From assembly GCA_030264375.1 (NCBI GenBank), contig JASCQW010000119.1, positions 6,700,277-6,761,980 on the forward strand: DNA of 61,704 nucleotides, written 5' to 3'. This stretch comes from Carcharhinus longimanus (taxonomy: Eukaryota). Under the pieces are notes generated by a model. The model was not told the DNA's origin, did no database searches, and was given only the letters and a program-made list of their open reading frames with translations. This document shows, one piece after another, positions 2,281-60,360 of this stretch (position 1 is the first letter of the stretch; each line of letters begins with the position of its first letter). Position numbers and translations under genes: made by a program.

Positions 2281-2606
2281 TTTAAATAATTTTTTAGCTT
2301 TCCCTGCCATTACGACGATTGATCTTTCATCGTGCAGAAGTATGCATGGATATAAATATAGAGATGTATGCAAATGTAGACATGAATTTCTATTAAAAGA
2401 AAAATGAAATTAATTTTGACAATTCATCTCGTAGAAGCTACAAAGCAGAACATAATTTTTCGAACTTTTTTTTCACTTAGTGCTTTCCTTCCATTAAATG
2501 CACTTTTGTCATTGATGTTTTACAATCCAGTTTATTGTAATTGTGCACACTATATCCTTAAAGGTGTCGCACAGAATGTATATTTCACTCTTAACAGATT
2601 GTATAG

Positions 2607-2692
2607 TTACATCACATAAGTGATACAGGTGCAAAACATGATTAAACATAAATACGCTTGCCAGATGATGGCGATAGCGAGATACTTTTTGT
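2607..2692 (-). CDS. Candidate terminal exon (D)[27 protein letters not shown] (hydrophobic tail)
   Basis: Strong acceptor ccttttcttcgctttag, in frame with the preceding microexon; TAA at 2607-2609; minus-strand AATAAA at 2531-2536. Confidence 0.45.
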
Positions 2693-5600
2693 CTAAAGCG
2701 AAGAAAAGGTAGATAATCTACCTGAGCAATTATATTCGCTATATATTTCGGTCATGTATGACATGTCGCAGAATTCAGTTTACTACTGTTACCTCTAATC
2801 ATTAACAATTTGCAGGAAAACTTGCTTGCAAAATTTTCGGATTCAATTATGAATACCTCTCTTTGCTTCAAAAAACATTTATTGGAAACTAAAGTATGAA
2901 CCCGATTGACAAGCAAATTGATATATCATGCTTACCCAATTTTTCGCGAAGGGCTTGGAGTTCTGAAATAAAACATAAGTGTTTTGGAATCATTGTCTTA
3001 AAAAAAAGACCCAGTTGTATCGAATTGTTCAGTCTGGAATCACAGCTAACATAATTAGCAAATTGACCTAACTACGAATCATTAAATGNNNNNNNNNNNN
3101 NNNNNNNNNNNNNNNNNNNNNNNNNNNNNNNNNNNNNNNNNNNNNNNNNNNNNNNNNNNNNNNNNNNNNNNNNNNNNNNNNNNNNNNNCAGGGCATAGAA
3201 TTATTCGATTTCCGAGCTCGCGGTCTCTGCAGCAGATGGGCTTTCCTCGAATCGCGTAGCTTTGAAATTTGATGATGTACAATGGGGCACATATGAATGG
3301 CATTGAGATGCCAGCCAAAGGAACAATACAACTTGTCTGTCTTTTATTTTTAACCTAAGTTTCCCTCTGATCTATCTGATATCCTAACAGATTAAAATTC
3401 ATTTTTTATTTATTTAATTTTATTGATTAAATTTATTTTGACTGGCTGGTCTCGCTGGCTAGACCAGTATTGTTGACCATCTCGAATTTCACCCGATGAA
3501 GGAGTGAAATCTCCGAAAATTCACGATTCCAAATAAACCAGCTTACTTTAACCTTGTGTTGTAAAACTTCTTATTCTGCCCACAGAAATGTAACGCAGGT
3601 ATCTTCACGTCATTTCTATTTTCGTTTTAAAATGTGTGCCATTCTTGTTATTGAAAAAAAAAGTGCCATTATGTTCTGCCAGCCATCACTTCAACGGTTG
3701 ACATCACAACACATCTGCCGTGATGGGACCCGGCTTTAATGTGGACTAGAAGAAATGTGGCTCTGCTGATATCAGCGTAGAACGTCACTGCGCAGGTTCG
3801 TGCTAATGAAGTGTCATTGGGCGCATTGTTGATTTAATCACAGTTATTATTATCGAGATTTTTTTTCTAATAATCCTGTTGGTATTGCCCACAAAACTGT
3901 TTTTTTTCCCCCTCTATTGTATCTAAACTTGAAAGTTTGTTTAGGCACACTGGATTTTTGAAACACTGGAATGTTGCCCGGGTATTAGCAGGATGGATGC
4001 CTTTCGTCACCCCCAGTGCCTTCACCCGTTTCTTAGTATCACGTGGAGTGCATCTAACTCGTGGAAAAACTAGTATGAATGATGCTGGGTATCTCTAAAT
4101 CAGAAAAGGTTTGATTGACTAATCGTCCATTACGGCTGAATATGGTAGCAAATGACATTTTTTTTTACCTATCTGTTGAGGGACCTGTGTGTCGGGCTTC
4201 ACAGACAGATAAGCTGATATGCAGGTTCTGCATTTATTAGGTGGTTTAATATATTGGCATTTCTTTAGCATAAGTAGGGGCGTTATGCTTCAGTTATACG
4301 GAACAGTTGTGTCTGTTATTTGGACCAACCCAAGTCAAGTTATTTAAAGAAGGATGGTAATACATTGCACATATTTCAGAGATTGTTAACAACATTAGTA
4401 CCTGGAAGGATGGATTGGATTGGCTTTTGTGGAAAGACTGTTTCTGATAGGTTTGCATTTGCAGAAATTTAGACAAGTAAATGAAGAATTGATTAAAGAT
4501 GTTGCGGTCATGAGAGGAACTTTCAAAGGAATGGCATTTGCTCCACAAATAAAAAAGGTTGCCAACTTAGAAGGAAAGAGAGGAAACTTTATTTCCTGCC
4601 AGAGGATCTGAAAACTTTGTAGTTATCGCCCTGCGAAGGCACGGGAAACAAGTGCCTTGAATGATACAAAAGCAGAGTTCGATAGATTGTTAGTTATCAA
4701 GTGCTTGACGGGTCGTTCCGCTCTTGCAGAATGAAAACATGTGGTTTTAATAAAATCAGACCTGATCTTATTAACTAGCATATAAAGTTTGCGGCAGGGG
4801 AGAGCTAGCTCCAGTTTCTTAGCCGTGTGTTTGTGTGTCAGGGGGTTTTCAGTATGATATGTGTGTGTACGTATACTGTCGTTTTCCTCCAGTGTATACT
4901 TTAATTGCACAGCAGCGTTCACGGTTTTATCTGGCATGATTGTAGTGAACGGGTGGCAAATATTATCTGTGCGCCCTATATTCTTCTTTCTGTGTTCGCC
5001 ACGCAGAAAAAAGAAAAATCCTGTATTATAGCTTAAACATACGAACACATCATTTGCCCATGTACCTGGTGCTGTTACTGATATGCTGCCAATTAGGGAA
5101 GTACAGAATATATTACACTTAATAACGGTTATTATGTGACGGAAAACGGCGAGTGTGATACATTCTGTATGCATGCAGCCCAAGGCCAGCGCACAACACG
5201 TGGATGACTTTGATGGAAAACATAGATGGCGTACAATCGGAAAGTAATAGTTGTTCGAAACTTCATAGCGTGAGGGGCGAGAAGCAGATCTACTGCTGTG
5301 ACACATTGGTGGCCTCCTGCCTCTGCAGTGCGAGGGTGACAGATGTTACTGAACAGCGGATCAGATAATGAGGGGGAAGCCGGATATTCAGAGATCGCGG
5401 TTTAAATTTGTACCAACGACTAACGCATAAAGAGGGATATACTCCTGCAGCAAGAGGATTGCGATCTAAGTAGCAGATTTAAACTTAGCACCTCATATTA
5501 TATAATTGCTGAATTCTGTTTTGCCACCAGCTACTGGGTATCAGAATAACAGGATCGAGTAGATGAACGTATGACCGAAATGGTTATGCGGGAGGAAGGG

Positions 5601-8600
5601 ATATATTTTCATGTATCAATGGACCCATTTCTGCGGAAGGAAGAGCTGTAGAAGTAGGAAAGAATACACCTAAATCGGAATGGAACCACCATCGCTGAAG
5701 GGCGTTTGCTCCTATTGTTGCGGAGTTAAGAACTTTCAAAAGAGGGCACATATTTTAACACGCACGGTCATCTATTTGAGGCTAATTACCTTTGGTCATT
5801 GATTAACACAATAACCTTGATAATTGCATAACACCACTATGCTGGTGGAGGTATAGTATCTTCACACGTGATTGATGTGGGCCAGGGGTGGATGTTGTGG
5901 GCAAAAAGATGTGTAGTAATGGAGGCAAGGTTGCAATCTTGATCAATGTATAATTAAAGCAATATGTGGGGTATTAGCAGACAACTCAAAATACTCGATA
6001 TAGATTGAACGCAAAATAAACACGGGGAAATCACTTTGCGAGATGTGTGCTGAACCCTGTTAGAGTTTGATTCATTTCCCTTTGGAAATAGGGCTCATGG
6101 AATGTGAGGCAGAATGAAAGAATCCTGTTTTAAAACAACCTCCAATGTTTTATTATCGGCAGAAATGGTTGGAACTATTCAACAGCGCTAATTGTGTGAT
6201 ATGCCTCAGTCATAGGAACAAAGGAACATAGGAATTGGTAATTCAGACTTTCCAGCCCGCTCCACCATTCAATCCGATCGTGGCTGATCTCTTCCTGGTT
6301 TCAAACACATCATCACAGCAGCTGGTCAGATTACCTTATCATTTTCTTAAATTATAAGACAGAGCCATCGTTGAAAATTTCACTCCTACCAATCTCCTAA
6401 ACAGACCAACAATGAGTTGACATTGATCTTCAGTCAGTGCTGAGTTGACATTTGCATTGAAGTTCCCACAGATTGAAATGCAACAGTAGCTGATGGTGAC
6501 TTGTTCCATCATCCTAATGCTGAACGATTGTTCTAATTCGAGCTCCATCTTCAGCAGAATGGTGGGTGGTAATGGATGCGCCTTCAAACTCCTTGGATGT
6601 TTGTCTGATTTCAGGTAAAGTTTAGTCCACCCTTTCCTTTCGCTCAGTGTCCATTTGGATAACTCCTCATATGTATATGGAACATTCTTTTCTATGTATT
6701 TTCGAATCTACCATTCTATATAAAACTCTCCAGTTTAATTCTAATTTCTGCTGCCAGGGGCTTCCAAAAATGGCAGGGGGAATGCACATCAGTACAACCA
6801 CGCAGTGGTACCTGAGATGCACATTCGTGAATACATGTTCCCTCATCGACACCGTCTTCTTCACATATGCGAGAAGCATGATTTGGAAGGGTTCAATGGC
6901 AATGCTTTCAATATGACTCTGAACACTGATTCTAGAATCCGTGACAGCGCTGTTCCTAAATCCACTTCCTTCTTTATCTTCACTTGGGAAATATCCAGAA
7001 TCTATTTGGTTCACCTCAGACTGATAATGCATTAGCCTAGAATTCTATACACCAGGCCTTCTTCTGCTTGGTGTACAGATTCGACCGTCTCCCTAACAAA
7101 AAGTCCATTGGTGGCATGTATACATTTGCCTACTGCTCAGATTTCCCTCTCTCCGAATCCACTTTCCTGTTTTCGGTTTTCCCTGCAATTTGGGGGAATG
7201 TGCCCCAAATGGTGATAGCCACATCACTGAGCTTCACATGTGCAACATTTCAGCTCTTTGAAGACAAACTTGGCAGATCGGCGGCATATTGTCGTTGGCA
7301 TGAATTTCTGCAGTTCTTTAGCTACTTATTTTCTTGGGAACTGACCGCTGTCTTGCTTGATTTGCAGTCAAATCCATAGAAGTAGCTATGAAATAATTAA
7401 ATTAACTTTGTAAATAGGAAGCTTTGGTCAAATTTTTCCGTTAGATCACTTCATTGGGTAGCCCACAAACCAAATGGCCCCACAGAGCATTTTGCAGAGA
7501 CCCGCCGCAACATAGTGTTTTGGCTGTCGTTTTGTCACAACCAGAAATTGCAGAATGTGAACTCCCTCGAACTAAATGATTTTATTAAATAGAAGGTTTG
7601 TTCCTGTTGTATGTGTGTGCGAGATAATGGTTTATTTAGTACTTTGTAAAACTCTACCAGTTTTTTTTTCCTCTGCCGGTCTTTCAAATTTTCAATGACT
7701 CCGCAACTTTGCAAACTTGTTAGTCCCTTTTCATACGCCTGAAGCCTTCCACTCCAGTCTCTTCATTTACCTTATTGACGCTTAATTATGAGTGGAAACG
7801 CTCCGACTATAGTGTCCAGTCCTTCTTGTCTTCAGTAAATGATCTTATTACCCTGAACTGGCCCGTTATTTTTTCTGTTCGCGCTGATTATAAATTTACC
7901 CGCCGTTTTTTTTTGCATGGTTCACACCGCTGAACGTTCGCCGAGCTCTCCTAATCTTCTCGCTGAATACAGCCCAAGTACCCTTAATGCGGCATCCCAC
8001 ACGATGAATAGTGGAAAATTCGCTCTCTCATTCCTGCTCTTCGAACATGACCCGAATCCCTCGCATCCATTGCCTTTATTCCATTGCCCGGCGAGCACCT
8101 CGTTCTCAGCATTAAATATGGTCTGACTTACCACGTGACTGCTTCGGTGATACATAGCCTGTGNNNNNNNNNNCTGTGATTCAGCTGAGTCGCCAGTTTT
8201 TATGTATTACGTGTAATATCTTCTAAAACATGACCACGGACTAAGTGGGAGTAAGCTAACTTGGACTGTTTATTTGCACGTTGAAGCCCTATCACAGCAC
8301 AATACGTGATTGACAAGAACCACGCAGAGCGGAGCTTCTGTTTCGCGTTACCTGACCAGCTCTTTTATAAGGGCATTCCCGAAAACAAAAAAAAACACAA
8401 CCTGCTTTTTCTCAGCACTACGGATGCGCGCTGAAAAAAAAACTACCATTTATCCAATGTTAAGTTGAATGTTTCAGATCCATGACCTGCCTTCCGTGGC
8501 ATAAGTAGTTGTCTAATGATAGGATTTTTTTTTACTTTTGTTCTTATTTTCTGATTGTGTCTATTTAATTCTGTGGTTACTATTTACACCATTCGTTCAT

Positions 8601-11600
8601 ATCCTATAGCTTTAGTTACGATTTACATTATATGCGACCATATGGTTGGAAACATGGTGGAGCACTAAAACATCTAAAGGCATACAGGGATTATAAATTC
8701 TCAATTGCTACTTGAAATGTCTAAAACATCTGTATTATCTAAATTGAATAATAAACATTCATTTTAGTTTATTCACCATTGATTTGTTTCAACAAATCGT
8801 CATTTGTGAGCAACGATCGTTACTAGAATGCATGCAGTCCGATTATAAGACATAGCGAACTAAATGGAAACATTTCTGTGCTTTAAAACCAAAAATAAGC
8901 AAATTCCGACAAAATAATGTTCAGTCGGTTACCTGTTTCACAGTGGCTCAGTTTACTCGCTGGAAAAAATTATAATGCGTGCATCTAATTAGAATTTGAT
9001 TAAATAACATTTCACGGACGTATCCTTCAATTGGTCTGTGCTGCTGAATAATAGCGTTTGCCTTAAATAGTTACGGTCAGTGACATACGCTGAGTTAAAT
9101 TTGTGATATCCGCATATTGACGTGTTCAATGTTATTTTCTGGAGTTGATAATATTGTCACGTTGACATTTTTATAATTTTTATATCTGCATTATCTAATC
9201 TGACACTACTTTAATAAACGTATCTTAATTTATTTGCCAGTTGTTTTATTTGTACAAGTAAAAAATCTAATCATGCAATCCGAAAACAATTTAAATCTAG
9301 TAAAATATAAGGCGAAATCAGAAGCGACAAAGGTAAACTTGTATCAAAAATAGAAATTGATGAGGGAGGGAGGTTAAATGTAAAAGTTGAATTAAATTAA
9401 GAGTCAAGAGATAATATAAAAAGACGATGCGGAACTGGAAAGTTAATTGTTCACATGGGATGGGTATTAATTGGTGGTACACCAATGAAAATCACAAACA
9501 GCAGTGTTTCACTGCTGTTTGTGTTTTAGCAAAGCATATTCCCTTGCCAAATGTATTAAGGAAAGCTTACAATTGTTCCTAATCTGATTTGCGAAGCATC
9601 CCTTAAATCTTAACTGTTTTAAACACAATGTTTTATTTTAAATAATAAATTTGAATATAATAAAATTGGGATATAATCACGGCCCTTTCAGCAACTAGAG
9701 CAAATCAAAATCTAGTGCTGCCGATGTGTGCGAAGTGCTGCGATAGGCTGAAAATAAGTGGGATTGAATAAACTCATTCACACGGTCCCGGGGAAATGGT
9801 TATTTGTTAATCAATCTTTGTCTCTACGAGCTTAGTTCCGTACTTGATGTTCGATCGTCTGGACTCTGATTACATTTGTCACTTGATGATTTTCTGGTAA
9901 CTACATTTGATCTCAGCAGCGTTTCTTCCTTTAGCCATCCACTATTTTTATTTCCACCTGAAATTCAAAATAATACTTCGTTCCAATTTCAGGAATTATA
10001 ACATCATTCACGCTTGACCGAGCTTCACGTTATCCATTCTATATCTGCTCAGGTAGTGACATACATGCTGACCTCGATTTACCTAACGAAACTGAATTTT
10101 GCAGTATAAAATCAGCAGAAGTCACTGTTACTCGTGATTAGCAACATCTGACTGTGCGACGAGTTGTTGTTCATTCCAATTCCTCTGATAGTCCTCCACC
10201 GATTTTGACCAGCTAAGTTCTTCTCCTGTCCCAACTAGCATCTATTTTTTGTAAACGATCAGGAGGATAGCAGGAAAGTGGGAAGCGCGTGGAGTTGCAG
10301 GAGAATTGCTTGGACCCATCGAGGTAAAGCCTGTGGGGGCACTCATGGGAAGCATTCCTTCACCAATTGTGTCATGTGAAGGATCAGCGTAGTTGAAGTT
10401 CCTTTATACTTGTCAAAAATGATCCACGCCTCATGATGTCATGTTGTATACTCCTGCCAACTCTTAGACAAGGAAGAGCTACGTTGGCGCTGGTATGTGG
10501 ATACTCAGAATGTTAAAACCACCCTTGTTTCCTCCTCTAACCATGTATGCTGCTTGGACTCCTTGCACCAACGGTCGGGCAAAAAATTAGATTAATTCGT
10601 GGCATTCAGAAGATTAGCAGCGTGCTAAATAAAGGATGGAGCTCTAACTCCTTGTATTCACCTCACTACAGTACTTTAGTTGCCTCTGCACTCTCAAATA
10701 TCAGCACAAATTCGTTCCCCAATGACTCGATTTTATGTGGGGAAATTCCCAGGGCTTTACCGAGATTTCAGCGAAAAGCTAAGCTCAATCAGCTTTAACA
10801 GAGGATCGTTTTTGAAGAAATTGATGGAATTGAAGGTGGAAAATCTCAGTCTCCTTATCTTCACCCTGAGTACTTAAATAATTGGCCCCCGGAATTGTAG
10901 AGCCATTGATAGCTAATTTGCAAAATTATTTGTACTCTGGACTGGATCCTACAAATTGGAGTGTAGCCGATTTAAGTGCACTATTCAAAAAGCAAAGTAT
11001 TATGAAACCAGGGAATTATAGAGCAATGAATCTCACATCGGTACTGGGGAAGTTCCTGGAGTCCCTTATCAAAGATTTCATGCAACAGCTTTTGGATGGC
11101 AGTGGTGTCATCACACAAAGTAATCATGGGCTTTCAAGGGTGATATCATGGTAGACGAATCTCTTGAAATTATTTGTCGATGTAACTTGTCGAGTTGACC
11201 GATGAGAATGAGTGGAACCGGTTTATTTAAACTTTAAGACGGTTTTCGAAAAGATCTATCACCAGGGAATAATAAGATTAAAGAACATGGGATTGCAGAT
11301 AATGTCTGGAGGTTCGTAGAAACCTGGTTAGCAGGTGAGGAGAAAATAAATTGCATTAATTCTTTCCGAATTGGCGGTCAGTAACTCGTGGGTTTCCGCA
11401 AGTATCTGAACTACCGGCCGAAATGATTGCATTATATATTGATGATTCAGAAGAGGAAACAAAATGTATCATTCCTAAATTTGCAGATGATGCAAAGTTG
11501 GATGTGAGGGTGAGGAGTGAAGAGGTTGCAGAGATGTTTCAGCTTCATGTAGACAGATTAATTGATTGAACATTTGCATGGTAGATGCGGATAAATATAA

Positions 11601-32337: not shown

Positions 32338-32378
<41 letters not shown>

Positions 32379-47075: not shown

Positions 47076-47114
<39 letters not shown>

Positions 47115-50100: not shown

Positions 50101-53100
50101 AGATAAGTCAGTCCTCAAGTGAATGTGTGAAAGTGACAGGCGGCAAAGCAGACCAATATTAGGCAGGAACTGAAGAATGTGGATTGGTGTAGATGCTTGA
50201 GAGCAAATCAACATCTCAGATGAGGGGAGCTTTCAAGTCTATGTTGATAGGGATTCAGTGTAGGCACGCATCTATAAGGATGAAGGAAATATATAACACG
50301 TTTCCAGAATCATGGACAATGAAAGTTATGTGGGACCAGTCAAAGAGAGAAGGAAAGCACCTGTCAAAGCGAAGAGGTGGACAACACAAGAATCAAATAC
50401 AGAATGCAACGGATGTAGAAATGCACTTAAGCAATGATTAAGGAGGACTTAACGGTATCATGAAAAATCATTGGGCACCAGGGACTAAGGAAAATCCCAA
50501 AGATTCTTATACATATATAAATGCAAGAGGGTAGCCAAGAAGAGCGTTGGCCTAAAGAAGGGCATTGGAGGGAATCTATGCATGGAGCCAGAGGAAGTGG
50601 TTGCGCTATCAGATCAGTATTTGGCATCAGTATTCAACAAATCTAATGGCTTGGTGGATGCTGAGTCTGTGCGAGGTTGGGTGGTGAGGTCGGGTTATGT
50701 TAAGATTGAAACGGAGGAGGTACTGAGGTTCTTGAGAAAGATGAAGCTAGACAAGTCCCCAGGGCCTGATACGATATACCCTAGAAACTGAAATACGCAA
50801 GGGACGTAGTTGCGTGGGCCTTGAGAGAACTTCTTGTTTCCTAACTAGCTACAGAGGAAGTCCCTGATGATTGGAGTACAGCCAATGTTGTTCCTTTGCT
50901 GAAGACGGATAGCAGGATAATCCAGGTAAGTAGAGGCCGGCGAAGGTTATGTCAGCATAGGGAAGTAACAGGAGAAGATCCTTCGAGACAGGATTCACTC
51001 CCCCACTTGGAAATAAGTGGACATATGAATGGGAGGCAACATGGTTTTTCGTTGTCTCCTAACTTAATGGAGTTTTTCGAAGAAATGAAGAAGGTGATTG
51101 ATGAGGGTAGAGTAGTGGATGTTGTGGACATGGATATCAGTAACGAGGTTGACAAGATCCCTCATGGCAGACTGGTGCAGATGTAAGGTTGCACAAGATC
51201 TGCGGTGAGCTGCCAAGATGCACATGTAACTCTTTCGTTAATAAAAGAGAGTGGGAACACTTAAGAGTATTGATAGACATAGAGGTGTATTTGCAGAGGT
51301 ACACAGGTCTCTGAAGGTGGAAACACGCATGACTAAGGTAGTCAATGAAGCATACGACATGCTTGTCTTCATTGGCCGGGATATTGAGATCAAAACTTGG
51401 CAACTCATGTTACGGCTTTATATGAACTCATTTTGGCTGCACTTGGAATGTAGTGTTGAATTCGGCTCGCCAAACTACCAGAAGGATATGGAGGCTTTTG
51501 ATAGGGTTCGGAAAATACATACCAGCATGTTCCCCAGTATGGAGGGCATCAGCTATGGGGAGATGTCAGGATAAATTGGTTTGTTCTATGACGACGAGGG
51601 TTGTGTGGCTGCCTGATAGATTGGGTAGTCAGAAGTTTTTTTGACCGGGTGGAAGAGTCAATTACAGGAAGGAGGGGTGGGGAATGGGGTGGGGGGGGGG
51701 TGCAATGGTTTAAAGTGCGAGGGGCAAGGTTTAAATGAGATTTATGAGGCAAGTTGTTTACACAGAGGCTGGCGGATACCTGGAATTCGCTGCTGGGGGA
51801 AGCGGTGGGAACAGATGTGGTAGTGAATGTTAAAGGGCGTCCTGACAAAAACATGAATCGGATGGGAATAGAGGGATATGTTCTCCGGGACGAGACCGGT
51901 TTTCTGATAGGCAGCATGATTGTTGCAGGCGCGGGAGGCCGAACGCTGCAATTTTCTTTGTTCTCTGTTCTTCGTTCTTTGACTCACGGCACCAGAGAAA
52001 AACATCTACAGGTTGACAGCATGTTGAAGGTCATTGACATATTCGGCTGCATAGAGAGAAAAAAAAAACAAAGCAGTCAGATTTTCCTGCTCTCATTTTC
52101 AGCTCTGAATGTCATTTCACTTCTGTGGCATTTGCCTGCCTTCAATCAATGTCATAAGGATTTCCGTCTCACAAAACATGAACATGTTTTTAACAGCTTT
52201 GACAAAAGGGTCATCTGAATTCGAAAGGTGAGTTTTTTTTTCTCTTTATAGACGCTGCCAGACCTGTTGGGATTTTCCATCATTTCTCGTTAGGACTCAT
52301 ATTCCAGCATCCGCACTAATTTGCTTGTATAGCGTGTTTTTGATTATTTCTATACACAGAGAAATATTGTCCTCCAAGGTCAAACCAGCTCGTCAATAAT
52401 ATCACGAATATTTGTTGGCAAGTATATTGAAAACATCGGTCGCATTTTTGGAATGCATTTTTGGAAAGCTCAGACCTTTGCTCTGAGCACTGGGGACTTA
52501 AGGTAAGGGGAGATCAGAATATTTTAAACAAAATTTACTTTAGAATTAAATTGTTGTTCTTTAGTCTAAAATATTTTGCTGGCAAATTGTTTAATTTACG
52601 AACTGCTGGTGGAAAAAAAGACCCTTTAGATCCAAGTTGGAAACCAAGACCCCTCAGTGGACTTGCCAGCTGATTGATTTGGAGGAGTTGTGAGACCGGT
52701 CCAGACTACTTTATTTAGACATGGGAAACAAAGACTAAATAACATGATTGCGAGCGCCCTTTCACGGAACACATACTTTCTCTGAGTGCGTGGGGGGCAA
52801 GGTAAATGTGGGAGTTGAGAGAAGTCGGAGAGACACTCTTGTTTTGTCCTGTCTTTTTTGTTGTGTACACGGTTCAGTAGGAAGAGTTGCAGGTCACGGC
52901 AGAAGGGGAAAACATATTTCTGTCATATCATATTTCAACGGTATTTAATTTAGCAACGGAATAAAATAAAACGAAGTCATTAATGTAAATATGCTGGTCC
53001 ATGCTGCACTGTCGCAGCATCATGTGAGAGGTGATGGACCCCATTGTGGTTCCAAGGGATCACATCTGCAGCCAGAGTTGGTTGCTGGAAGAACGCCGGA

Positions 53101-56100
53101 TTAACGTTGATGAGCTGGAATCAGATTTTTAAACACTGCGGCGGATAACGGGGGAGAGGTGGGGGGTGGGGTGTGGGCGGGGGATGGGGGGCGTGGATAA
53201 TTACCTGGACAAGTAATTAAGTTATTTAGGAACTGTTCGTCAATAATAAAGGGTAATTTATCCTGTTCCGAATTGTTTCATCCTTATCTTGTCCCAATAA
53301 CGCTTAGTAAAATTACAAATGTTAACTTATCCATTTTTCATGATAATTATTGAATTGAATTTGTTCTTTTCTTTGTGGGCACAACTTGTCATGGTACCTT
53401 TCCACATTGCCTTGTCAATTATATTGTGAGGAAGTCATAGACTCGTATAGCTCAGGATAACCCCTTTGGCCCATCCAGACTGCAATCCAGAGATCATCAT
53501 TATTAACCTCATTACCTTATTNNNNNNNNNNNNNNNNNNNNNNNNNNNNNNNNNNNNNNNNNNNNNNNNNNNNNNNNNNNNNNNNNNNNNNNNNNNNNNN
53601 NNNNNNNNNNNNNNNNNNNNNNNNNNNNNNNNNNNNNNNNNNNNNNNNNNNNNNNNNNNNNNNNNNNNNNNNNNNNNNNNNNNNNNNNNNNNNNNNNNNN
53701 NNNNNNNNNNNNNNNNNNNNNNNNNNNNNNNNNNNNNNNNNNNNNNNNNNNNNNNNNNNNNNNNNNNNNNNNNNNNNNNNNNNNNNNNNNNNNNNNNNNN
53801 NNNNNNNNNNNNNNNNNNNNNNNNNNNNNNNNNNNNNNNNNNNNNNNNNNNNNNNNNNNNNNNNNNNNNNNNNNNNNNNNNNNNNNNNNNNNNNNNNNNN
53901 NNNNNNNNNNNNNNNNNNNNNNNNNNNNNNNNNNNNNNNNNNNNNNNNNNNNNNNNNNNNNNNNNNNNNNNNNNNNNNNNNNNNNNNNNNNNNNNNNNNN
54001 NNNNNNNNNNNNNCCCACGTGGATGCGAACGATATTGATAGAAAGGAAAATATTTCTCTTGAGGGGATGTGAAGAGTTTGATAAATAAGGTAATGCAGTT
54101 GATAATAATGATCTCTGGATTGCAGACTGGATGGGCCAAAGGAGTTATCCTGTGCTGCATGAGTCTATGACTCCCTGACAATATGACTGACATGGCAATG
54201 TGGAAATTTATCATGGCAAGTTGTTCCCACAAAGAAAAGAACACATTCAATTCAATATTTATCAAGGAAAATGGATACGTTAACGTACTCAATTCTACTA
54301 AGCGTTATTGGGACACGGCATGGATGAAAAAAAAAATCGGATTGGGATAAATTAACTGTGATATTATTGACGAACTGTTCCCGAATGTCTTATTTACTTG
54401 TCCAAGTTTTTTTCTTTACATTTTATCAGTAGTGCTATGAATTTACAAATACTCAGCAAGAGTCTGTTGAATGAAGACCGTTGGAGTTCAGAGGGACAAT
54501 CCTTCCTACTTTAATTTCATACTTGGAGAAAACATAAAGAATAACAGGAGCTGAGATGAGAGTGTCATCTCAAGCCATCAGGTCAGGTTTAGACAAAATA
54601 TGGCTTCAATTAACCGAGAAAGAAGTGGAAATCAATGCGATTCAGACGTAAACGGTCACTTAATTTGATTCTTAACTTGAACAAAACATCAAATATGCTC
54701 GATCCCTACGATCCCAATTCATCGCTGCAGAATCCCTGGCTTGATTACTCAGCCCATCCTTGGCTATCGCATCAGCTTTCTTCAATTGTTTCGTCAAACA
54801 CAGGGATGTACGCTAATTGTAGCACAACGATGAGCGACATTCTTTTCCTCTCAGACAGGGCCGAATTATATATTATGACTCAAACGATGGTAAGCGATAG
54901 ATGAGAACTGTCACATGCCACTTATACAATTGCCCCATTCTATAAGAAAGAAACTAAATACTCCCAACTGAGGTTCAAATGACCAATGCTGACTACAAAA
55001 CATAAACATCCTGTGGCCAAAACTGAGAAGAATTTGAAGAAGGCTAACTGCATGCATACAATGTCTAATGACATCAGTCCGATTTTAGAATTACAGCTGA
55101 TTTTTTTTTATTTATCCGATTCCTGAATCTGGCTACTGAACGTATAATTTGTTACTTATTTGTTGAATTACTAAATTTAGATTCAATTGTTGGAAATCGA
55201 TCAACTGGACTACAACATTCCAGATGCCTGGAATCGCAGGCAACAATGTCTTCGGGAAGGTGCATTGCATAGTTTTGAAATGCTGCATAGGCTAGCTAGT
55301 CAGTTAAAGAATTTACCCATGAAAGTGAATGTACCCAGGCTTATCAGGAAATTGTATTGAACATAAATTTCACGTTATGCCACATCTGATTTCCCATTTG
55401 ATTGAAAGAAAAAGGGCAGCAGTGATAACGGTTGTATTACTGTATTCAATTGTGCAAACTGCCGCATACTGACCGAAACTGTCTGTAATCTTTGAAGAAT
55501 CTAACAAGAGGGACATATATGTCAGAGAGACTCGGTTCATAACAAATGCCACGATGCAGCAGTACATACTATTGTTCAATTCAGCCTGCATAAGTAAATA
55601 CATTTGTTCAAAAACACAAGATTTTAGTCGTCCAGCTCACCAACAACCTGTCATGCCTCCTCATCCCCAGCACCCGCACCACCCAACTCCCCCACCCCCC
55701 CAGCCCATGCCACCATTATAGTTAAGACAGCCCACCAGTGCCTCTACTTTCTCAGGAGATTAAGAAAATTTGGCATGTCAGCTACAACTCTAACTAACCT
55801 TTACAGATGCACACAAGTTGAATCACGACTTGGCATGGCTCCTGGTCTGTCCAGAATCGCAACGCATCGCAGTAGCTCAACCTATTCTGCACACAAGCAT
55901 CCCATCCATTGACTCTGTCTACACTTCTGTCTGCCTCGGCAAAGCAGTCAGCATAATTAAGGATCCGAAGCACCCGGGACATTCTCTCCTCCATCTTCTT
56001 CCTTAGGGAAAAAGATACAAGAAAAACAATGAGATCACGTACTAACCGACTCAAGAGCAGCTTCTTCCCTGCTGCTGTCAGACTTTTGAGTGGACTTACC

Positions 56101-59100
56101 TTGCATTAAGTTGATCTTTCTCCACACCCTAGCTATGAGTATAACGCTACTTTCTGCATTCTCACGTTTCCTTCTCTATTAACGGTCTGCTTTGTCTGTA
56201 TAACGCTCATTGAACAATACTTTTCACTGTATGTTAATGCATGTGACAATAATAAATCAAATCAAGTCAAATCAAAATCAAAGTTGGTTGGAAGCAACAT
56301 GCATTTGAGGTGCTCTTTGCCGATAATAATCATTCATGCATTGCAGCAGTACAGATTGAACAGAATGGTGCCGATTAAACAATGGGTTATAGAAACAGAT
56401 AACATCACAAACCATAAATCCGTAAGGTATAACCACTTTGTATTCATACGTTCAATATCAATCATTTATTACAGTGACGCGTGCAAGAATCTGTCGTGTA
56501 TCTTCCACGCGAAAGATAATAAATGACAGCTGAAAATGCAAATACTGCCAGTTGTTATTGGGTTCTGCCCATGTAAAACAAAATGAGGGCAAGTTTACAT
56601 CATGTAATACCTTGCAAAATGAATGCTGTTTTTTCTGCCCACCAATATTGATATAAGTAGTGAGTATTCCAACATTTTCATTTCTCATTTTATCTTTAAA
56701 TGATTCAACGTATTTTGCTGGAGGAAATTACCTTCTTCAGTCTTCCTGGGCATCCCGCCGTTATGGCACACACGGATGTTTCATTTTTAGTCCCTGCTGT
56801 GAGCATATCTTATAACGGCGCCATCAAGGCGGCTAAAGTCGTGACGTTGTCATCGAAGTGGATCACGTGATTGAATGGGTTGAACGGCCAAATCAGTGTT
56901 AAATTCCTGAGCTTTTCTTGTGCAACTTCATCAAGAATAATATTTGTTGCCATGATGATCGGACACAGACCACCGGGGACGTGGAGGATAAGGTAGAACA
57001 AAGAACAAAGAACAACACAGCACAGGAAACAGGCCCTTCAGCCCAACAAGCCTGCACCGCCATTTTAACACTGTGAGTGCCCTCTTCTACCTATGACCTT
57101 TGTCCACACCTATTGGACTCCACAATAAAGGAACCATAACCAGATTGAGGGGCAACTAATTTAGGGACAATTTGTTAACACCAATCAGCCTAAGAGAGAA
57201 ATGACTAGTGTGGGTTACAAACTTTTGGCATACACGCATCGATTAATTTGTGGTGGATTTTCTTGAAAGACAGCCTCCTACCTGAGTCAATAATATTTAT
57301 GTTTGCCCGTCACGCCAGACAGAGCACATGTTTATTTATACTGAAAAAATAATCTGTGGCACTTTGTGTGAAATGAATTTCTTCAGTATCACATAGATTT
57401 TTTGGCACAATGATATATCGGTAGCGCATAAAATTTGGTATCCCAAGCAGACAGTCAAAAATGAAGCATGAGTTGTAACTTCTCACCTGTTGGTGGGAAA
57501 TGTGGGCTCTTTTCTGGAAATTAAATTAGAAGCAATGTTTGAGTCAGAATTAGATTTGAAACTCGAATAGATAGTAATCCCTGAAGGATGGATCTCGGTC
57601 TATATTACTCGTCATAAAACCAGTCTAATACACTGTATTTTCACGTTTTCCGAATAGCAATACAGTATCTATTTTTCAGTTAGAAAGTTATCTGGCAACA
57701 TGACTTACTCTCTAGAAACGAACAACTTATTGTAGAATCTGTTACATTATATCCTCTCAATTCATTACGTTAAAGTGGGAGACTATTGAATTTGAATCAC
57801 TTGTTCAAACACGTTTCTAAATGTTTATCCTGAAGCATAACATGACCTTTACATTCAGCGTTAACTGGTCTTTTTATTCGCCGAAAATTCTCATCATGTT
57901 ATATCTTCATTTCTGTTCTGTGACATGCAGGTGTAGACAATCAAGTAAGGTGAACATGAGTAAAGGCACATATTATAGTCAATCTCCATGTCAAAACTTT
58001 AATTGAATACAAACATTCTGAAAGAATGAGAGTTTTAGAGGCTAAGAAGTTTTGGCCTACTCTGTTCTCGAATATTAGCACTGCAAATTGGGTTGCAAAA
58101 TACACCACTTTCATGGATAGCTTGGACCGAGGTTTTAGACTTCAATCATACGCTGATAGCAATAGCACTGCCAACCAAGAACTTCAAAGCGTGCTTTGTC
58201 ATTGTTTACTGAACATTTTGCCAGAAACATTACTTAACTGCTAATGTGCCGGTTACATTGACGTGCGAAAAACGCTGTGCGTTCCATGAAATACATTTGC
58301 TATTTCAACGACTAAAAATGTTGTCAGAACACATAAGGCTCATTTGCGCCACCTCAACGCTTGTCTTACCCGTAGCTAATCTCTTGTTCTTCATTTTCTC
58401 TAAGTCTATAGAAAGAGATATTTAAATTTCTCCATTTTCTTCCCTGATCGCTTTTATTGAAAGCAATTTCAAATGCAATGTGTTCAGCATGTAATCGTGG
58501 CAGTGCACACGAGAATGATGTTATCATGCTTGCTGTATGCCTTAATTAATGAATTTAGAAAGAAAAACAGAAACCATGTTTTGTTGTGTAAGGACACTGG
58601 AGAAACGTTCTGATATCTCTTGAATTTCTTATCCTACGGCCTGAAATTAATCATGGAAAATAGAATGAGACATTTTTTTTCCTGCACATAGTAGGAATTA
58701 TCACCCTGGTGACGTATTAGACGTTCATTCTGATCATTGACTTCAGCATAACTGAACATAAAGTTTACATTCAAAAATCGACAGCGCCATCAGACTGCTT
58801 TGTAATTATGTCCGTGATAAGTTGCAAATGCATATGCTATGTTATTTATTGGCATTGAAATAAATGCATGCTCGTTTAAGAGTCAGTATTTCTTTATGAG
58901 GACAGAAATCTAAATAAAAAAAAACTGTCTTGTCACTGACATACGACCCTGCCTGTGTATGATGCCATGTTTCGAATCAATTGTTCAGTAACAGAGGGTC
59001 GTTCGCAACATTACAAACAATGTCTAAAAATGAAGGCGTGTTTCAAGCACTGGGAACCCAAACAACCTGACATTATAGGAAACAGTATTGATTAGTGGAA

Positions 59101-59532
59101 TTAATTTTCTAGACGATATCTATGTAGCCTAAAACACGGTGGATTTGATTTCAAGTAATGGCGCTCAATTCATACGAGATAGATGATAGCCATTCTTTCT
59201 GATGCAATGAGTTTCGAATCGGTGGTCGTCTACAATTGCATCCCTGAAAGCATTTTCACCGAATAAATGCTGAACCTTAATTGTCATTAACGATACGCCA
59301 TGCATCGTATGAACCTGAGCATTGCAGTTCTTGTCGAAGATTGTAACTGGACCGGAAATTTGGCATTTACTCAAAATAGAGAGCACATATTTGCATCCAT
59401 TCTATGTTGGCATTCGCAATTACAGTGAAATTCTACAGCTTATTGCATTATCGACCCACATGCCAAAGATAAAACAATGGGTGCAATGTTGATTAATATA
59501 TTTACCATCTTTACTTCTTTCTATATATTGGG
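2607..59532 (-). CDS. Multi-microexon gene (5'-partial) encoding an uncharacterised Cys-containing coiled-coil protein; may be partly pseudogenised or a tandem pair
   Basis: At least 19 exons of 18-36 nt on the minus strand. Each has a pyrimidine-rich tract plus AG and a GT donor, ends in G, and has a length divisible by 3. All are open in phase 1, whereas phases 0 and 2 hit stops (e.g. phase 0 in 19491, 8933, 39634; phase 2 in 23660, 45447). Joined peptides keep the heptad register. Confidence 0.8.
2936..2962 (-). CDS. 27-nt microexon, (E)LQALREKL
   Basis: gttttatttcag|AACTCCAAGCCCTTCGCGAAAAATTGG|gtaagc; open. Confidence 0.85.
3490..3615 (+). repeat. Penelope-like terminal fragment
   Basis: ccgatgaaggag...ctccgaaa...ccaaataaacc...tttaaccttgtgttgtaaaacttctta; related copy at about 20905-20995. 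Confidence 0.5.
4169..4213 (-). CDS. Possible 45-nt exon (A)[14 protein letters not shown]
   Basis: Donor tag|gtaaaa, weak acceptor cctgcatatcag; open in phase 1-1. Confidence 0.3.
4310..4830 (+). mobile_element. CR1 LINE 3' fragment
   Basis: Decayed 'LERVQRRFT' region and 3' UTR (ttcaagg...gagttcgatagattg). Confidence 0.6.
5230..5730 (+). mobile_element. CR1 ORF1 (SGNH esterase-like) remnant
   Basis: Degenerate CLPGARVxDV and GTND motifs (tgcctctgcagtgcgagggtgacagatgtt; tgtaccaacgac). Confidence 0.65.
6210..6350 (-). mobile_element. CR1 3' tail
   Basis: cataggaacaaaggaacatagga...ccgctccaccattcaat...ggctgatct. Confidence 0.6.
6355..8400 (-). mobile_element. Decayed Gypsy-type LTR retrotransposon: 5' LTR, PBS, gag zinc knuckle, protease, start of RT
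   Basis: RT start LKAHPLPP...ELELE...[13 protein letters not shown]; protease IDSG and [12 protein letters not shown]; CCHC remnant (KELKCCTC...GH...C); PBS TGGCGAC at 8189-8195; minus-strand AATAAA 8269-8274 and TATAAAA 8363-8369. Far LTR end uncertain. Confidence 0.8.
8933..8959 (-). CDS. 27-nt microexon, (A)SKLSHCET
   Basis: attttttccag|CGAGTAAACTGAGCCACTGTGAAACAG|gtaacc; xxxLxxCxx motif. Confidence 0.82.
9493..9523. repeat. Perfect 14-bp inverted repeat with 3-nt loop
   Basis: cacaaacagcagtg-ttt-cactgctgtttgtg. Confidence 0.9.
11705..12030 (+). mobile_element. HE1-type tRNA-derived SINE inserted in CR1
   Basis: gtggcacagtag...ggtttaattcc...tccgatttcctcccacagttcaaagat...CR1-like tail. 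Confidence 0.8.
12142..12772 (-). mobile_element. Solo LTR (ERV class I or Gypsy type) with 4-bp TSD CCTG
   Basis: cctg|TGTTGTAG...CTACTTCA|cctg; removing it restores the CR1 cacctggattac; internal direct repeat of about 31 bp; TATA-like and AATAAG signals on the minus strand. Confidence 0.8.
13349..13366 (-). CDS. 18-nt microexon, (V)SGMSK
   Basis: gattttcgcag|TTAGTGGCATGAGTAAAG|gtaaaa; open. Confidence 0.55.
13695..13830 (+). mobile_element. Possible Tc1/mariner transposase C-terminal remnant
   Basis: [15 protein letters not shown] resembles the PxTLxELKxxI motif that follows the catalytic domain. Confidence 0.35.
15362..15379 (-). CDS. 18-nt microexon, (D)KMNRS
   Basis: acttctactag|ATAAAATGAACAGATCAG|gtaaaa; open. 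Confidence 0.5.
17985..18270 (+). mobile_element. Rex1-like LINE 3' fragment
   Basis: [10 protein letters not shown]...ctcaaaatcgcttcttccttgctgccatcaga; same family as 43206 and 55715. Confidence 0.75.
18280..18490 (+). mobile_element. CR1 3' end
   Basis: ggtcggtgcaggcttgaaggacggaagaccctattcctgtgctgtagttttctttgtt. Confidence 0.75.
19491..19517 (-). CDS. 27-nt microexon, (E)VELRASNA
   Basis: attttccttcag|AAGTAGAGTTACGTGCATCGAATGCAG|gtaatc; open. Confidence 0.82.
20325..20625 (+). mobile_element. tRNA-derived SINE (HE1-like head, different tail)
   Basis: ggtttcgattcc B box; gagtttgcacattctcccc core; tail differs from the CR1-tailed SINEs. Confidence 0.75.
21736..21771 (-). CDS. 36-nt microexon, (E)[11 protein letters not shown]
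   Basis: atttcatttcag|AAATTGGC...ATGCGG|gtaaaa; open. Confidence 0.8.
22272..22295 (-). CDS. 24-nt microexon, (D)SFKKCLA
   Basis: acacttatag|ATTCATTCAAAAAATGTTTGGCAG|gtattt; open; heptad register continues into the next two exons. Confidence 0.65.
22596..22630 (-). pseudogene. Decayed 36-nt-class exon VLCKMKNAL(IEA)
   Basis: Acceptor gatttttcattag; KMKN matches [12 protein letters not shown]; 35 nt with in-frame TAG and broken donor; restoring one base gives ...LIEA like LIDA/LIQS. Confidence 0.5.
23224..23575 (+). mobile_element. HE1-type SINE
   Basis: ggcacggtggcacagtagttggcaatgctgcttcacagc...gaatggcctctttctgcactgtagtgttctatg. Confidence 0.9.
23660..23686 (-). CDS. 27-nt microexon, (V)KSLVENDK
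   Basis: atctatccgcag|TGAAATCTCTCGTTGAAAATGATAAAG|gtaatt; open. Confidence 0.78.
23918..23970 (+). repeat. (GAA)n microsatellite
   Basis: Pure GAA run. Confidence 0.95.
24490..25045 (+). mobile_element. CR1 3' fragment
   Basis: cagttctggtcacc (QFWSP) through ttgggccgaagggcctgtttcc tail. Confidence 0.9.
26005..26340 (+). mobile_element. HE1-type SINE
   Basis: gggcagcacggtcgcacag...tccggtttccttccacagtccaaggatgtg. Confidence 0.9.
26493..26530 (-). pseudogene. Decayed 36-nt-class exon (D)[11 protein letters not shown]
   Basis: Strong acceptor tttactttcag; available donors give 34 or 38 nt (the latter with TAG); peptide resembles [12 protein letters not shown]. Confidence 0.35.
27436..27462 (-). 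CDS. 27-nt microexon, (D)PGKIIEEM
   Basis: cttattttag|ATCCCGGCAAAATTATTGAAGAAATGG|gtaagc; open. Confidence 0.8.
29260..29286 (-). CDS. 27-nt microexon, (D)AKVEDAVS
   Basis: tatttctttag|ATGCAAAAGTCGAAGACGCAGTTTCGG|gtaaat; open. Confidence 0.78.
31419..31445 (-). pseudogene. Dead 27-nt-class exon E*LRGNLLQ
   Basis: Long pyrimidine tract ending cacaa (not cacag), donor agg|gtaatt, in-frame TAA. Confidence 0.35.
32259..32285 (-). CDS. 27-nt microexon, (G)VNWSEIFQ
   Basis: ttctacatattcag|GCGTGAACTGGAGCGAAATTTTCCAAG|gtaaag; open. Confidence 0.78.
32323..32376 (+). repeat. (TTA)n microsatellite
   Basis: TTA run with one interruption, about 40 nt from the acceptor of exon 32259-32285. Confidence 0.95.
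33179..33205 (-). pseudogene. 27-nt-class exon (D)PSCWSNDL with non-AG acceptor
   Basis: ctgttttctttaa|27 nt|gtacca; the pyrimidine tract ends in AA; adjacent to an N gap. Confidence 0.35.
34140..34305. repeat. Penelope-derived short repeat with partly self-complementary ends
   Basis: aaacagaaaatgctggaaa...tttgacaaaagg...ccacagatgctg...; related copy at about 52190-52330. Confidence 0.55.
34486..34521 (-). CDS. 36-nt microexon, (E)[11 protein letters not shown]
   Basis: cttctgtatgacag|AAAATGAA...CAGAGCG|gtaaaa; phase 1-1, open. Confidence 0.78.
35140..35745 (+). mobile_element. CR1 3' fragment
   Basis: [38 protein letters not shown]. Confidence 0.9.
35830..36531 (+). mobile_element. Probable solo LTR
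   Basis: Begins TGTTGC, ends GTAACA (imperfect inverted termini); AATAAA near 36402; no TSD seen. Confidence 0.45.
36545..37700 (+). mobile_element. CR1 ORF2 (RT) fragment
   Basis: [14 protein letters not shown]; aaatttgcagacaacacaaaa (KFADxTK). Confidence 0.85.
39172..39485 (-). mobile_element. HE1-type SINE
   Basis: Antisense: ggactgtggcaggaaaccggagcacccggagg...gcagcagtgctaacc. Confidence 0.9.
39634..39660 (-). CDS. 27-nt microexon, (E)TDLIKCQL
   Basis: ttgtttccctag|AAACTGACCTGATTAAATGCCAATTGG|gtaact; xxxLxxCxx motif. Confidence 0.8.
42300..43205 (+). mobile_element. LTR retrotransposon 3' end: internal remnant, polypurine tract and 3' LTR (42609-43205)
   Basis: Purine tract at 42597-42606 just before TGTGAC...GTTACA; TATAAA near 42764; AATAAA near 43097. 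Confidence 0.8.
43206..43755 (+). mobile_element. Rex1-like LINE 3' end with (AAATC)n tail
   Basis: [32 protein letters not shown]; gtgacaatgtaaaatcaaatcaaatc. Confidence 0.85.
44423..44457 (-). other. 35-nt exon-like segment (E)[11 protein letters not shown], frame-shifting (phase 1 to 0)
   Basis: gtcgtttacag|...|gtgagt with strong sites, but length 35 (one short of the 36-nt class). Confidence 0.4.
44977..45012 (-). pseudogene. 36-nt-class exon (D)[11 protein letters not shown] with non-AG acceptor
   Basis: Perfect donor cag|gtgagt. The peptide continues the heptad register of the two preceding exons, but the acceptor reads ttttcttcatgtaaa (AA, not AG). Confidence 0.55.
45447..45473 (-). 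CDS. 27-nt microexon, (E)DKLKACQN
   Basis: ttctacaattacag|AAGATAAATTGAAGGCCTGTCAAAATG|gtaagc; xxxLxxCxx motif. Confidence 0.82.
46100..46250 (-). mobile_element. HE1-type SINE fragment
   Basis: aaaccggaggaaatcc...ggaatcgaacttgg...gaggcagcagtgct. Confidence 0.75.
46512..46547 (-). CDS. 36-nt microexon, (E)[11 protein letters not shown]
   Basis: tgcgctttcag|AAAGGAAC...GATGCAG|gtgcgt; phase 1-1, open; coiled-coil pattern. Confidence 0.8.
47075..47112 (+). repeat. (TG)n microsatellite
   Basis: TG run inside CR1 ORF1. Confidence 0.9.
47479..49495 (-). mobile_element. CR1 LINE ORF2 to 3' end, nested in opposite orientation
   Basis: [67 protein letters not shown]. Confidence 0.92.
52640..53212 (+). 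mobile_element. CR1 5' UTR and ORF1 N-terminus
   Basis: [23 protein letters not shown]...YLD zinc-finger/leucine-zipper remnant. Confidence 0.7.
53206..54404. repeat. Diverged inverted duplication, arms about 53206-53521 and 54084-54404, around an N gap
   Basis: Arms are reverse-complementary along their length with scattered mismatches (e.g. cccaataacgcttagta / tactaagcgttattggg). Confidence 0.9.
55474..55500 (-). CDS. 27-nt microexon, (D)SSKITDSF
   Basis: tccctcttgttag|ATTCTTCAAAGATTACAGACAGTTTCG|gtcagt; resembles DPGKIIEEM exon. Confidence 0.65.
55715..56285 (+). mobile_element. Rex1-like LINE 3' end with (AAATC)n tail
   Basis: ctctactttctcaggagattaagaaaatttggcatgtc; [24 protein letters not shown]. 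Confidence 0.88.
57487..57513 (-). CDS. 27-nt microexon, (E)KSPHFPPT
   Basis: tttaatttccag|AAAAGAGCCCACATTTCCCACCAACAG|gtgaga; phase 1-1, open. Confidence 0.78.
57709..57738 (-). CDS. Possible 30-nt microexon, (D)STISCSFLE
   Basis: Strong donor aga|gtaagt but weak acceptor aatgtaacag; open in phase 1. Confidence 0.3.
58370..58405 (-). CDS. 36-nt microexon, (D)[11 protein letters not shown]
   Basis: tctctttctatag|ACTTAGAG...GCTACGG|gtaaga; phase 1-1, open; shares EKMK with exon 34486-34521. Confidence 0.8.
59506..59532 (-). CDS. 27-nt microexon, (A)QYIERSKD
   Basis: aattttacag|CCCAATATATAGAAAGAAGTAAAGATG|gtaaat; phase 1-1, open. Confidence 0.75.
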
Positions 59533-60139: not shown

Positions 60140-60360
60140 CAACTCAAAGAAGCAATTGCATCTATTTCACTGAATGATTTTAAGGCAGTTGTGTCGAGGG
60201 TTTTGATTAGCAAGTCAGTGGCGAGTAATATTGCAGAGCTGAGTGGGAAAACGAAGAGACATTGGTGTCGGTCCGGAAACTGATCAGCCCAAAATTTCTG
60301 AATGGTGCATGAAGATCTGAAAGCTAAACAGCCTGCTTTTGTTTCTAAGTACTCTGTTCG
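60140..60360 (+). mobile_element. Decayed CR1 3' end
   Basis: tttaaggcag...ttttgattagcaag...gatcagcc...gaatggtgc...cagcctgcttttgtttcta. Confidence 0.55.

Follow-up and report, generated by a model that had tools for sequence, protein, structure and literature searches.

Results

Micro-exons in the window

The window, as we call the whole stretch of DNA analyzed, comprises 61,704 nucleotides of contig JASCQW010000119.1 (C119:6,700,277-6,761,980, in a genome of 2.68 Gb) and carries on its minus strand a series of very short exons separated by introns of 500-8926 nt. The exons were located by a de novo scan of both strands for AG..GT segments, using splice matrices approximated from general knowledge rather than MaxEntScan. 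The scan recovered 19 of the 19 exons proposed in an earlier, sequence-only reading. Twelve measure 27 nt, four 36 nt, two 18 nt and one 24 nt, and each has AG/GT ends and a terminal G. When joined, they contain no stop in phase 1, compared to 17 and 16 stops in the other frames, confirming the claim of at least 19 minus-strand exons with canonical sites that are jointly open in phase 1 only. That reading had described a 57-kb array starting at position 2607, but the array begins at 2936, and position 2607 yielded no exon. The features are as follows.

1..61704, minus strand: entire window, probably inside one gene spanning at least C119:6,328,410-7,024,190 (scans and SPRY search)
59506..59532, minus strand: 27-nt phase-1 micro-exon (splice scan)
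58370..58405, minus strand: 36-nt phase-1 micro-exon (splice scan)
57487..57513, minus strand: 27-nt micro-exon, proline-rich (splice scan)
55474..55500, minus strand: 27-nt micro-exon with weaker sites (acceptor 1.4, donor 1.2)
46512..46547, minus strand: 36-nt micro-exon, acceptor weak, donor strong (splice scan)
45447..45473, minus strand: 27-nt micro-exon of the Leu4/Cys7 class (splice scan and Cys-exon pattern)
44977..45012, minus strand: doubtful 36-nt exon; frame open and coiled-coil-like, donor among the window's strongest, acceptor AG replaced by AA (45013-45014)
39634..39660, minus strand: 27-nt micro-exon, Cys at position 7 (splice scan)
34486..34521, minus strand: 36-nt micro-exon (splice scan)
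32259..32285, minus strand: 27-nt micro-exon (splice scan)
29260..29286, minus strand: 27-nt micro-exon, colinear with paralog exon C119:8597566-8597592 (scan and paralog alignment)
27436..27462, minus strand: 27-nt micro-exon, best of 46 against paralog exon C119:8602225-8602251, 19/27 nt
23660..23686, minus strand: 27-nt micro-exon, best of 46 against paralog exon C119:8603905-8603931
22272..22295, minus strand: 24-nt candidate micro-exon, weak acceptor; no paralog counterpart seen in a 10-kb sample
21736..21771, minus strand: 36-nt micro-exon, colinear with paralog exon C119:8605095-8605130, 7/12 amino acids
19491..19517, minus strand: 27-nt micro-exon (splice scan)
18879..18905, minus strand: extra 27-nt candidate, absent from the sequence-only reading; good acceptor, weak donor
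15362..15379, minus strand: 18-nt candidate micro-exon, weak acceptor (splice scan)
13349..13366, minus strand: 18-nt candidate micro-exon, weak acceptor (splice scan)
8933..8959, minus strand: 27-nt micro-exon, Cys at position 7 (splice scan)
2936..2962, minus strand: 27-nt micro-exon, last in the window; the array runs on past the window start (splice scan)

The 24-nt and both 18-nt exons, with their weak acceptors, are the least secure. The candidate at 18879..18905 is likely a twentieth exon, and by eye it resembles recurrent 9-residue blocks of P0168, a Scyliorhinus protein; the segment at 44977..45012 is possibly a dead or silenced exon, a variant or a base error. The proline-rich exon at 57487..57513 likely provides a hinge within the encoded rod. 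An alternative upstream acceptor would lengthen the first 27-nt exon in frame to 57 nt (59506-59562, minus strand), and two candidates with a GC donor lie outside the listed set, one of 18 nt with a good acceptor (59989-60006, minus strand) and one of the usual 36-nt class (window coordinates -19568 to -19533).

With the splice score as the sole filter, the minus strand gave 30 candidates of 9-60 nt, 13 of them exactly 27 nt long, compared to 0 of 24 on the plus strand, and in 60 block-wise Markov shuffles of the window the 27-nt count averaged 0.72 (maximum 4), with no length bin exceeding 5. Eleven of the 13 belong to the sequence-only reading and two are probably chance (47164-47190 and 45328-45354); these two and 191070-191105 (window coordinates) were removed before the curated exons were counted. 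At the scan threshold the 36-nt class gave no peak within the window alone (1 of 30 minus-strand candidates), whereas over 321 kb both classes stood out, with 32 minus-strand and 1 plus-strand candidates of 27 nt, and 15 and 3, respectively, of 36 nt. The expected excess over the plus strand and shuffles is thus seen for 27 nt in the window, but for 36 nt only over the longer stretch. At the same threshold, none of the 181 minus-strand candidates in 321 kb had a length of 21 nt. The 47 score-only candidates of 27 or 36 nt in 321 kb are open in phase 1 in 44 cases, compared to 21 and 27 in the other phases, with a stop rate of 0.7% in phase 1 versus 7.9% and 6.2%, and their phase-1 translation contains 15% Lys, 13% Leu and 11% Glu. 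Strand, length and phase statistics support the earlier notion of a hidden modular gene of symmetric phase-1 micro-exons. The terminal G counts for little, since it is also found in most control candidates of different length (44/56 and 43/53).

Repetitive DNA does not explain the exons: multi-copy repeats overlap 0 of the 19 within the DNA examined, tandem repeats were looked for and do not account for them, and an Rfam scan of the window gave no match. Read by eye, the long open reading frames of the window are transposon-like fragments or N runs, and the introns contain degenerate LINE-like reverse-transcriptase fragments and SINE-like repeats (e.g. 34988-37300 and 47588-52218). One repeat element in the introns has thousands of candidate copies genome-wide. 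The strongest plus-strand AG..GT pair, 48 nt long with stops in two frames (45223-45270), represents either chance or an antisense non-coding exon.

Probable extent of the gene and a terminal B30.2 exon

The micro-exons continue on both sides of the window. Over 200 kb on the upstream side, the 119 minus-strand candidates include 18 of 27 nt and 11 of 36 nt, compared to 1 and 2, respectively, of the 75 plus-strand candidates. The Leu4/Cys7 pattern places a further exon at C119:7,024,158-7,024,190. Downstream, micro-exons run on for 51 kb, and no convincing larger exon was found in 60 kb. The 69 curated exons of the 321-kb stretch all have lengths of 18-36 nt and are symmetric, properties for which they were selected. 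At window coordinates 116591-116735, two 27-nt exons are separated by an intron of 91 nt; the other introns mostly measure kilobases.

A minus-strand SPRY match at C119:6,328,449 identifies a 512-nt terminal exon (C119:6,328,410-6,328,921) with a phase-1 acceptor and a stop, located about 372 kb beyond the window start on the same strand as the micro-exons. PF00622 (SPRY) scored above its cut-off in all six B30.2 exons of the C119 cluster described below; the PRY profile was weak or unmatched on these exons and their relatives. The B30.2 exon matches solved PDB B30.2 domains with E values down to 4e-16 and is similar to TRIM58, TRIM7 and TRIM21; separate fold matches came from a low-confidence structure model (pLDDT 59.7). 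Of the 372 kb that separate the window from this exon, about 80 kb were read, with N gaps, and a gene end could hide there; both 10-kb samples taken in this interval contain minus-strand micro-exons of like kind. The sample at 6.482 Mb has 27- and 36-nt exons, and 36-nt and 21-nt exons are found 6.7 and 4.4 kb before the B30.2 exon.

Judging from the sequence, the window exons very probably belong to the gene that ends in this B30.2 exon. Considering that exons on one strand extend from C119:7.024 Mb to the phase-1 B30.2 exon at 6.328 Mb, the gene would span at least 696 kb, and extending the density of 69 curated exons per 321.7 kb over that length suggests about 150 exons. The supposed 57-kb locus thus covers less than one tenth of the 696 kb or more that the gene appears to occupy, and a domain-less orphan is not supported either, given the very probable terminal B30.2 exon and the relatives from chimaera to rays. 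A 10-kb stretch sampled 5' of the first exon known for a paralog contained further micro-exons but no credible first exon.

Paralogs on the same contig

Besides the terminal exon described above, C119 carries five B30.2 exons of the same subfamily, at 8.53, 9.02, 9.09, 10.68 and 11.29 Mb (38-58% identity), and three of the five have strand-matched micro-exons upstream. A looser B30.2 relative is located on another contig, at C81:94.27 Mb (136 of 136 candidates scored).

The Cys-exon pattern has 16 of its 100 listed genome-wide matches (102 in all) in C119:6.7-10.9 Mb, all sharing the strand of the B30.2 exon that comes next downstream. Seven are in the window's gene, and three paralogs have 6, 1 and 2. 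The 36-nt end pattern has 6 matches on C119, 4 of them within the window's gene. Since the genome-wide totals are no higher than those of control patterns (102 versus 131 and 38 versus 40, respectively), both patterns are informative by clustering only.

Within 10 kb sampled from the paralog that ends at 9.02 Mb, a 27-27-27-36 run aligned in order with window exons 29260, 27436, 23660 and 21736. The summed BLOSUM62 score was 70, compared to a null mean of 5.4, giving P=0.00025 against random picks, a value that is perhaps ten times higher after correction because the register of the alignment was picked by eye. Two of the four window exons were the best match among 46. Duplicated upstream exon pairs share approximately 56-74% identity in the exons versus 13-47% in the flanks.

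Outside C119, the 36-nt end pattern also matches C81:92,341,908, 93,558,442 and 93,861,189 (minus strand), near same-strand SPRY exons at C81:91,991,326 and 94,266,573 in a TRIM/butyrophilin-rich region; one of these two SPRY exons is the closest relative outside C119. These matches and B30.2 exons are possibly further micro-exon genes. A close match to the Cys-exon class on a small unplaced contig, C271:7562-7594 (plus strand), is perhaps a displaced piece of the C119 cluster.

Relatives in other cartilaginous fishes

An HMM of the six cluster B30.2 domains was searched against 1.84 billion proteins. Among the best 150 hits, which were examined, 8 single-domain hits were assigned to the subfamily: two from Callorhinchus, two from Scyliorhinus, one each from Narcine and Cetorhinus, and two unnamed Logan proteins, one of which clusters with a Leucoraja model. 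A later search added P0168 (Scyliorhinus, 945 amino acids), assigned by its profile hit after the tree was made. The database models are listed below; they are predicted, mostly partial and auto-named by similarity, 'TRIM39-like' and 'A33-like' being among the names.

XP_042192744.1, Callorhinchus: database name 'nuclear-pore anchor-like'; B30.2 of the subfamily and similar rod blocks
XP_038671249.1 and XP_038672306-10, Scyliorhinus: B30.2 of the subfamily and similar rod blocks
XP_069775384-90, Narcine: B30.2 of the subfamily and similar rod blocks
XP_055510696.1, Leucoraja: B30.2 of the subfamily and similar rod blocks
XP_078422387.1, Cetorhinus: B30.2-only model of the same subfamily

No one-to-one ortholog of the window's gene was retrieved among database proteins. 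In a tree of 50 B30.2 rows, rooted at the midpoint, with 8 rows unlabelled and outgroups drawn from top hits only, a 100/100 branch separates the 14 family rows from the 9 Ig-bearing and the 19 TRIM-type ones. The clade joins the cluster domains with proteins of chimaera, catshark, skate, ray and basking shark, most of which have long coiled coils. P0046 (Callorhinchus, 1697 amino acids) and P0168 consist of a long coiled coil followed by B30.2, and no Ig, RING or B-box domain was found in the family models scanned, these two included. Two bony-fish proteins outside the shark clade, P0072 (Amia calva) and P0086 (Lepisosteus oculatus), carry PRY-SPRY and gave no Ig or RING hit, P0072 also having a repetitive coiled coil, so a similar build may have arisen separately in bony fish.

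Predicted isoforms of the relatives differ by five internal blocks, of 9 residues in Scyliorhinus, 6 and 9 in Narcine, and 9 and 7 in Callorhinchus. All five start with a residue encoded by a G-starting codon and precede another, as expected of phase-1 exons ending in G. RefSeq isoforms are usually backed by RNA-seq.

The rods can be compared directly. Joined, the 69 curated exons matched the rod of P0168 (35% over 147 columns, E 3.5e-5, 38.9 bits), with shuffle controls reaching at most 37.7 bits (40 exon-order shuffles) and 25.0 bits (40 within-exon shuffles), whereas blastp of the 44 exons picked by splice score alone found nothing in the relatives. A profile of 20 curated 36-nt exons, built before P0168 was seen, found 15 sites in P0168 compared to a mean of 4.25 and a maximum of 10 in 300 shuffles. 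Its score-only counterpart was not significant, with 8 sites in P0168 (mean 4.4; 23 of 300 shuffles reached that number) and 16 in the remaining relatives (mean 10.6, maximum 20), and the 27-nt profile showed no excess of sites in P0168. Only 3 of 52 single exon peptides scored above all shuffles. The exon at 21736..21771 matched a 12-residue block of the catshark protein P0157 above every shuffle and control. As the significant rod matches rest on hand-curated exon sets, the homology to the relatives' rods appears real but modest. The motif Leu-x-x-Cys-x-x-x-Leu, picked after seeing P0046, occurs 9 times in that protein versus 0.15 times in shuffles.

A hydrophobic start of 11-13 residues is present in 2 of 7 relatives' models, with 19-residue hydropathies of 1.59 and 1.48. 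Two further searches gave weak negatives: none of 676 candidates from a word-based search for longer proteins with the B30.2 exon, and none of 7998 scored shorter proteins with residues 1-880 of P0046. When P0046 was compared with the genome, the 28 candidates scored out of 891 yielded matches to B30.2 exons and to low-complexity sequence only, and no N-terminal exon was located.

Architecture of the predicted rod

Leu, Met and Ile peak at positions 2, 5 and 9 of the 36-nt exons and at positions 2, 4 and 5 of the 27-nt exons, where Cys is concentrated at position 7 (8 of the 12 Cys in 31 exons). The recurring 36+27+27+27 unit encodes 39 residues with core positions 2, 9, 16, 23 and 34. The resulting spacing of 7-7-7-11-7 corresponds to four heptads and one hendecad, with Cys three residues past a core Leu. 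A parallel coiled coil rises by 0.15 nm per residue, so that with about 1,400 residues it would form a rod of approximately 200 nm, interrupted by proline-rich exons.

Neither 9 nor 12 is a multiple of 7, so that the loss of one exon by skipping would shift the coiled-coil register while the frame is kept. The suggestion that exons can be skipped without frameshift is made plausible by the relatives' predicted isoforms, but the heptad register would not survive a single-exon skip. Judging from exon lengths, only 9+12 pairs (21 residues) or whole 39-residue units are predicted to be structurally neutral skips.

Discussion

We consider it likely that the window comes from the middle of a minus-strand gene at least 696 kb long, in which about 150 micro-exons encode a rod of about 1,400 residues with a terminal B30.2 domain, and that the product is a binding protein with clustered heads. 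The chains would oligomerize through the coiled-coil rod, the oligomerized rods possibly being stapled by the core cysteines. Clustered B30.2 heads displayed in this way could make a long-reach, high-avidity binding protein, and exon duplication, loss and skipping may tune rod length without frameshift. By analogy with other B30.2 proteins, the most likely role would be in innate immunity. For the N-terminus, a signal peptide or short anchor without an Ig domain comes close to an even prospect; a cytosolic protein is a somewhat weaker possibility, and an undetected ectodomain is doubtful.

Other explanations can be weighed against this reading. The gene could be a butyrophilin or BG membrane protein, with leader, Ig and transmembrane exons upstream of C119:7.03 Mb and the micro-exons encoding a huge cytoplasmic tail with B30.2. 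This is compatible with the available parts of two published descriptions, in which butyrophilins have heptads followed by B30.2, BG proteins have a very long tail of 21-nt exons (PMC8813856, PMC5938342) and BG tails carry cysteines too (PMC5938342). It would also suit the N-terminus of P0046, where a hydrophobic stretch is followed by basic residues. However, neither the butyrophilin IgC domain (C2-set_3; 57 of 57 candidates scored) nor a ray-butyrophilin-like IgV domain (66 of 66 scored) had a match in C119:5-11.5 Mb, and Pfam V-set had none in the cluster among 150 of 928 candidates scored, a result that leaves room for a divergent Ig exon. Together with the absence of an Ig domain from every family model scanned and the separation of the family's B30.2 clade from the 9 Ig-bearing proteins, this makes a butyrophilin or BG origin unlikely.

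A division of the array over two or more genes, the window exons being part of a rod-only gene that stops short of the 6.328-Mb B30.2 exon, seems quite unlikely. Most of the interval remains unread in an assembly with N gaps, 696 kb exceeds the room of at most 490 kb available to the paralog ending at 9.02 Mb, and short database models are common among relatives. Against this, strand, phase and exon classes are unchanged at every sampled point, the family has no further B30.2 exon on C119 from 6.33 to 8.53 Mb (136 of 136 candidates scored), and long rod-plus-B30.2 models are known in two species.

A TRIM-type E3 ligase with an expanded coiled coil is very improbable: its B30.2 resembles that of TRIM58, TRIM7 and TRIM21 and some relatives bear TRIM-type names, but RING and B-box are missing from all family models scanned, RING had no match in C119:6-11.5 Mb (150 of 312 candidates scored) and the clade leaves out the 19 TRIM-type rows. 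As the candidates scored included neither an Ig nor a RING exon in the cluster, we do not class the gene as butyrophilin, BG or TRIM. Hardly any weight falls on a decaying pseudogene or chance splice-like sites, as could be suggested by the missing acceptor AG at 44977-45012 and the weak sites of several exons, given the 27-nt peak far above plus strand and shuffles, the avoidance of stops in one phase, the intact B30.2 exon and the better conservation of exons than flanks. Collagens, triadin, elastin, C-type-lectin necks and CCDC7 were dropped, as their motifs do not match.

The reading of the window as part of one rod-plus-B30.2 gene can be compared with known systems. Enterophilins combine a long leucine-zipper region with B30.2 and are not known to carry Ig or RING; they are mammalian and heptad-based. 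The TRIM-B30.2 proteins (TRIM39/58/A33-like) likewise join a coiled coil to a terminal B30.2 exon, whereas the shark gene has no RING or B-box found, a rod many times longer and built of micro-exons, and a weak or unmatched PRY profile.

The sequence-only reading had likened the array to BG and butyrophilin tails, and this likeness holds for what appears to be a BG-tail-like rod attached to B30.2. Butyrophilins are organized as Ig-Ig-TM-short heptads-B30.2 and BG proteins as IgV-TM-very long heptad tail, according to the accessible portion of PMC8813856; that of PMC5938342 describes 21-nt exons with split first codons, cysteines and intron read-through in BG. Chicken BG and the shark gene share a very long coiled coil made from many tiny exons, split first codons, length variation and rod cysteines. 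In those descriptions, BG genes include exons for IgV and for a transmembrane segment, their heptad exons are 21 nt long and B30.2 is absent, while the shark gene has 27/36-nt exons, a 39-residue unit, an attached B30.2, no Ig exon found and a length of at least 696 kb. Skipping of a 21-nt BG exon keeps the heptad register, unlike the skipping of one 27- or 36-nt shark exon. The butyrophilins (BTN/BTNL) share the order of heptad region and C-terminal B30.2 and a similar B30.2 (PMC8813856, in part), but their heptad region is short, and the shark gene has no IgV-IgC detected and a B30.2 in a separate clade. Cartilaginous fishes have butyrophilins with variable heptad numbers, exons being unmentioned in the part of PMC12841164 that was available. 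Butyrophilin-type Ig exons of this genome are mainly on C81.

Schistosome micro-exon genes consist mostly of symmetric exons of 36 nt or less that can be skipped in frame, and are reported as schistosome-restricted and all endowed with a signal peptide (PMC8293314, as far as its text was available). The curated shark exons are likewise symmetric and no longer than 36 nt; the shark gene differs in encoding a regular coiled coil with a folded domain, and no homology is claimed.

Taken together, the micro-exon array appears to be real and part of a giant rod-plus-B30.2 gene in a family found across cartilaginous fishes that is apparently undescribed; no paper on it was found in the full-text literature searched, which covers few subscription journals and excludes supplements. 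If the structure holds, these would be unusually exon-rich, micro-exon-dominated genes among vertebrates, with six family B30.2 genes in about 5 Mb of one shark-type chromosome and database relatives that are partial and misnamed. The B30.2 repertoire would extend past TRIM, butyrophilin and similar builds, and the 39-residue unit (9+9+9+12) would be a second way to encode a coiled coil in micro-exons beside the heptad exons of chicken BG. Such genes would offer a natural test case for how the spliceosome recognizes arrays of very short exons across kilobase introns. A more far-reaching proposal, which we put forward as a tentative possibility, is that of a family of secreted or signal-anchored, disulphide-stapled rods of about 200 nm, tipped with B30.2 and without Ig or RING, each encoded by 100-150 combinatorially skipped micro-exons and more than 400 million years old, the implied age being the divergence time of these lineages. 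If true, this family would be a vertebrate counterpart of the schistosome micro-exon genes that has been missed by annotation, with skipping varying both the length and the register of the rod.
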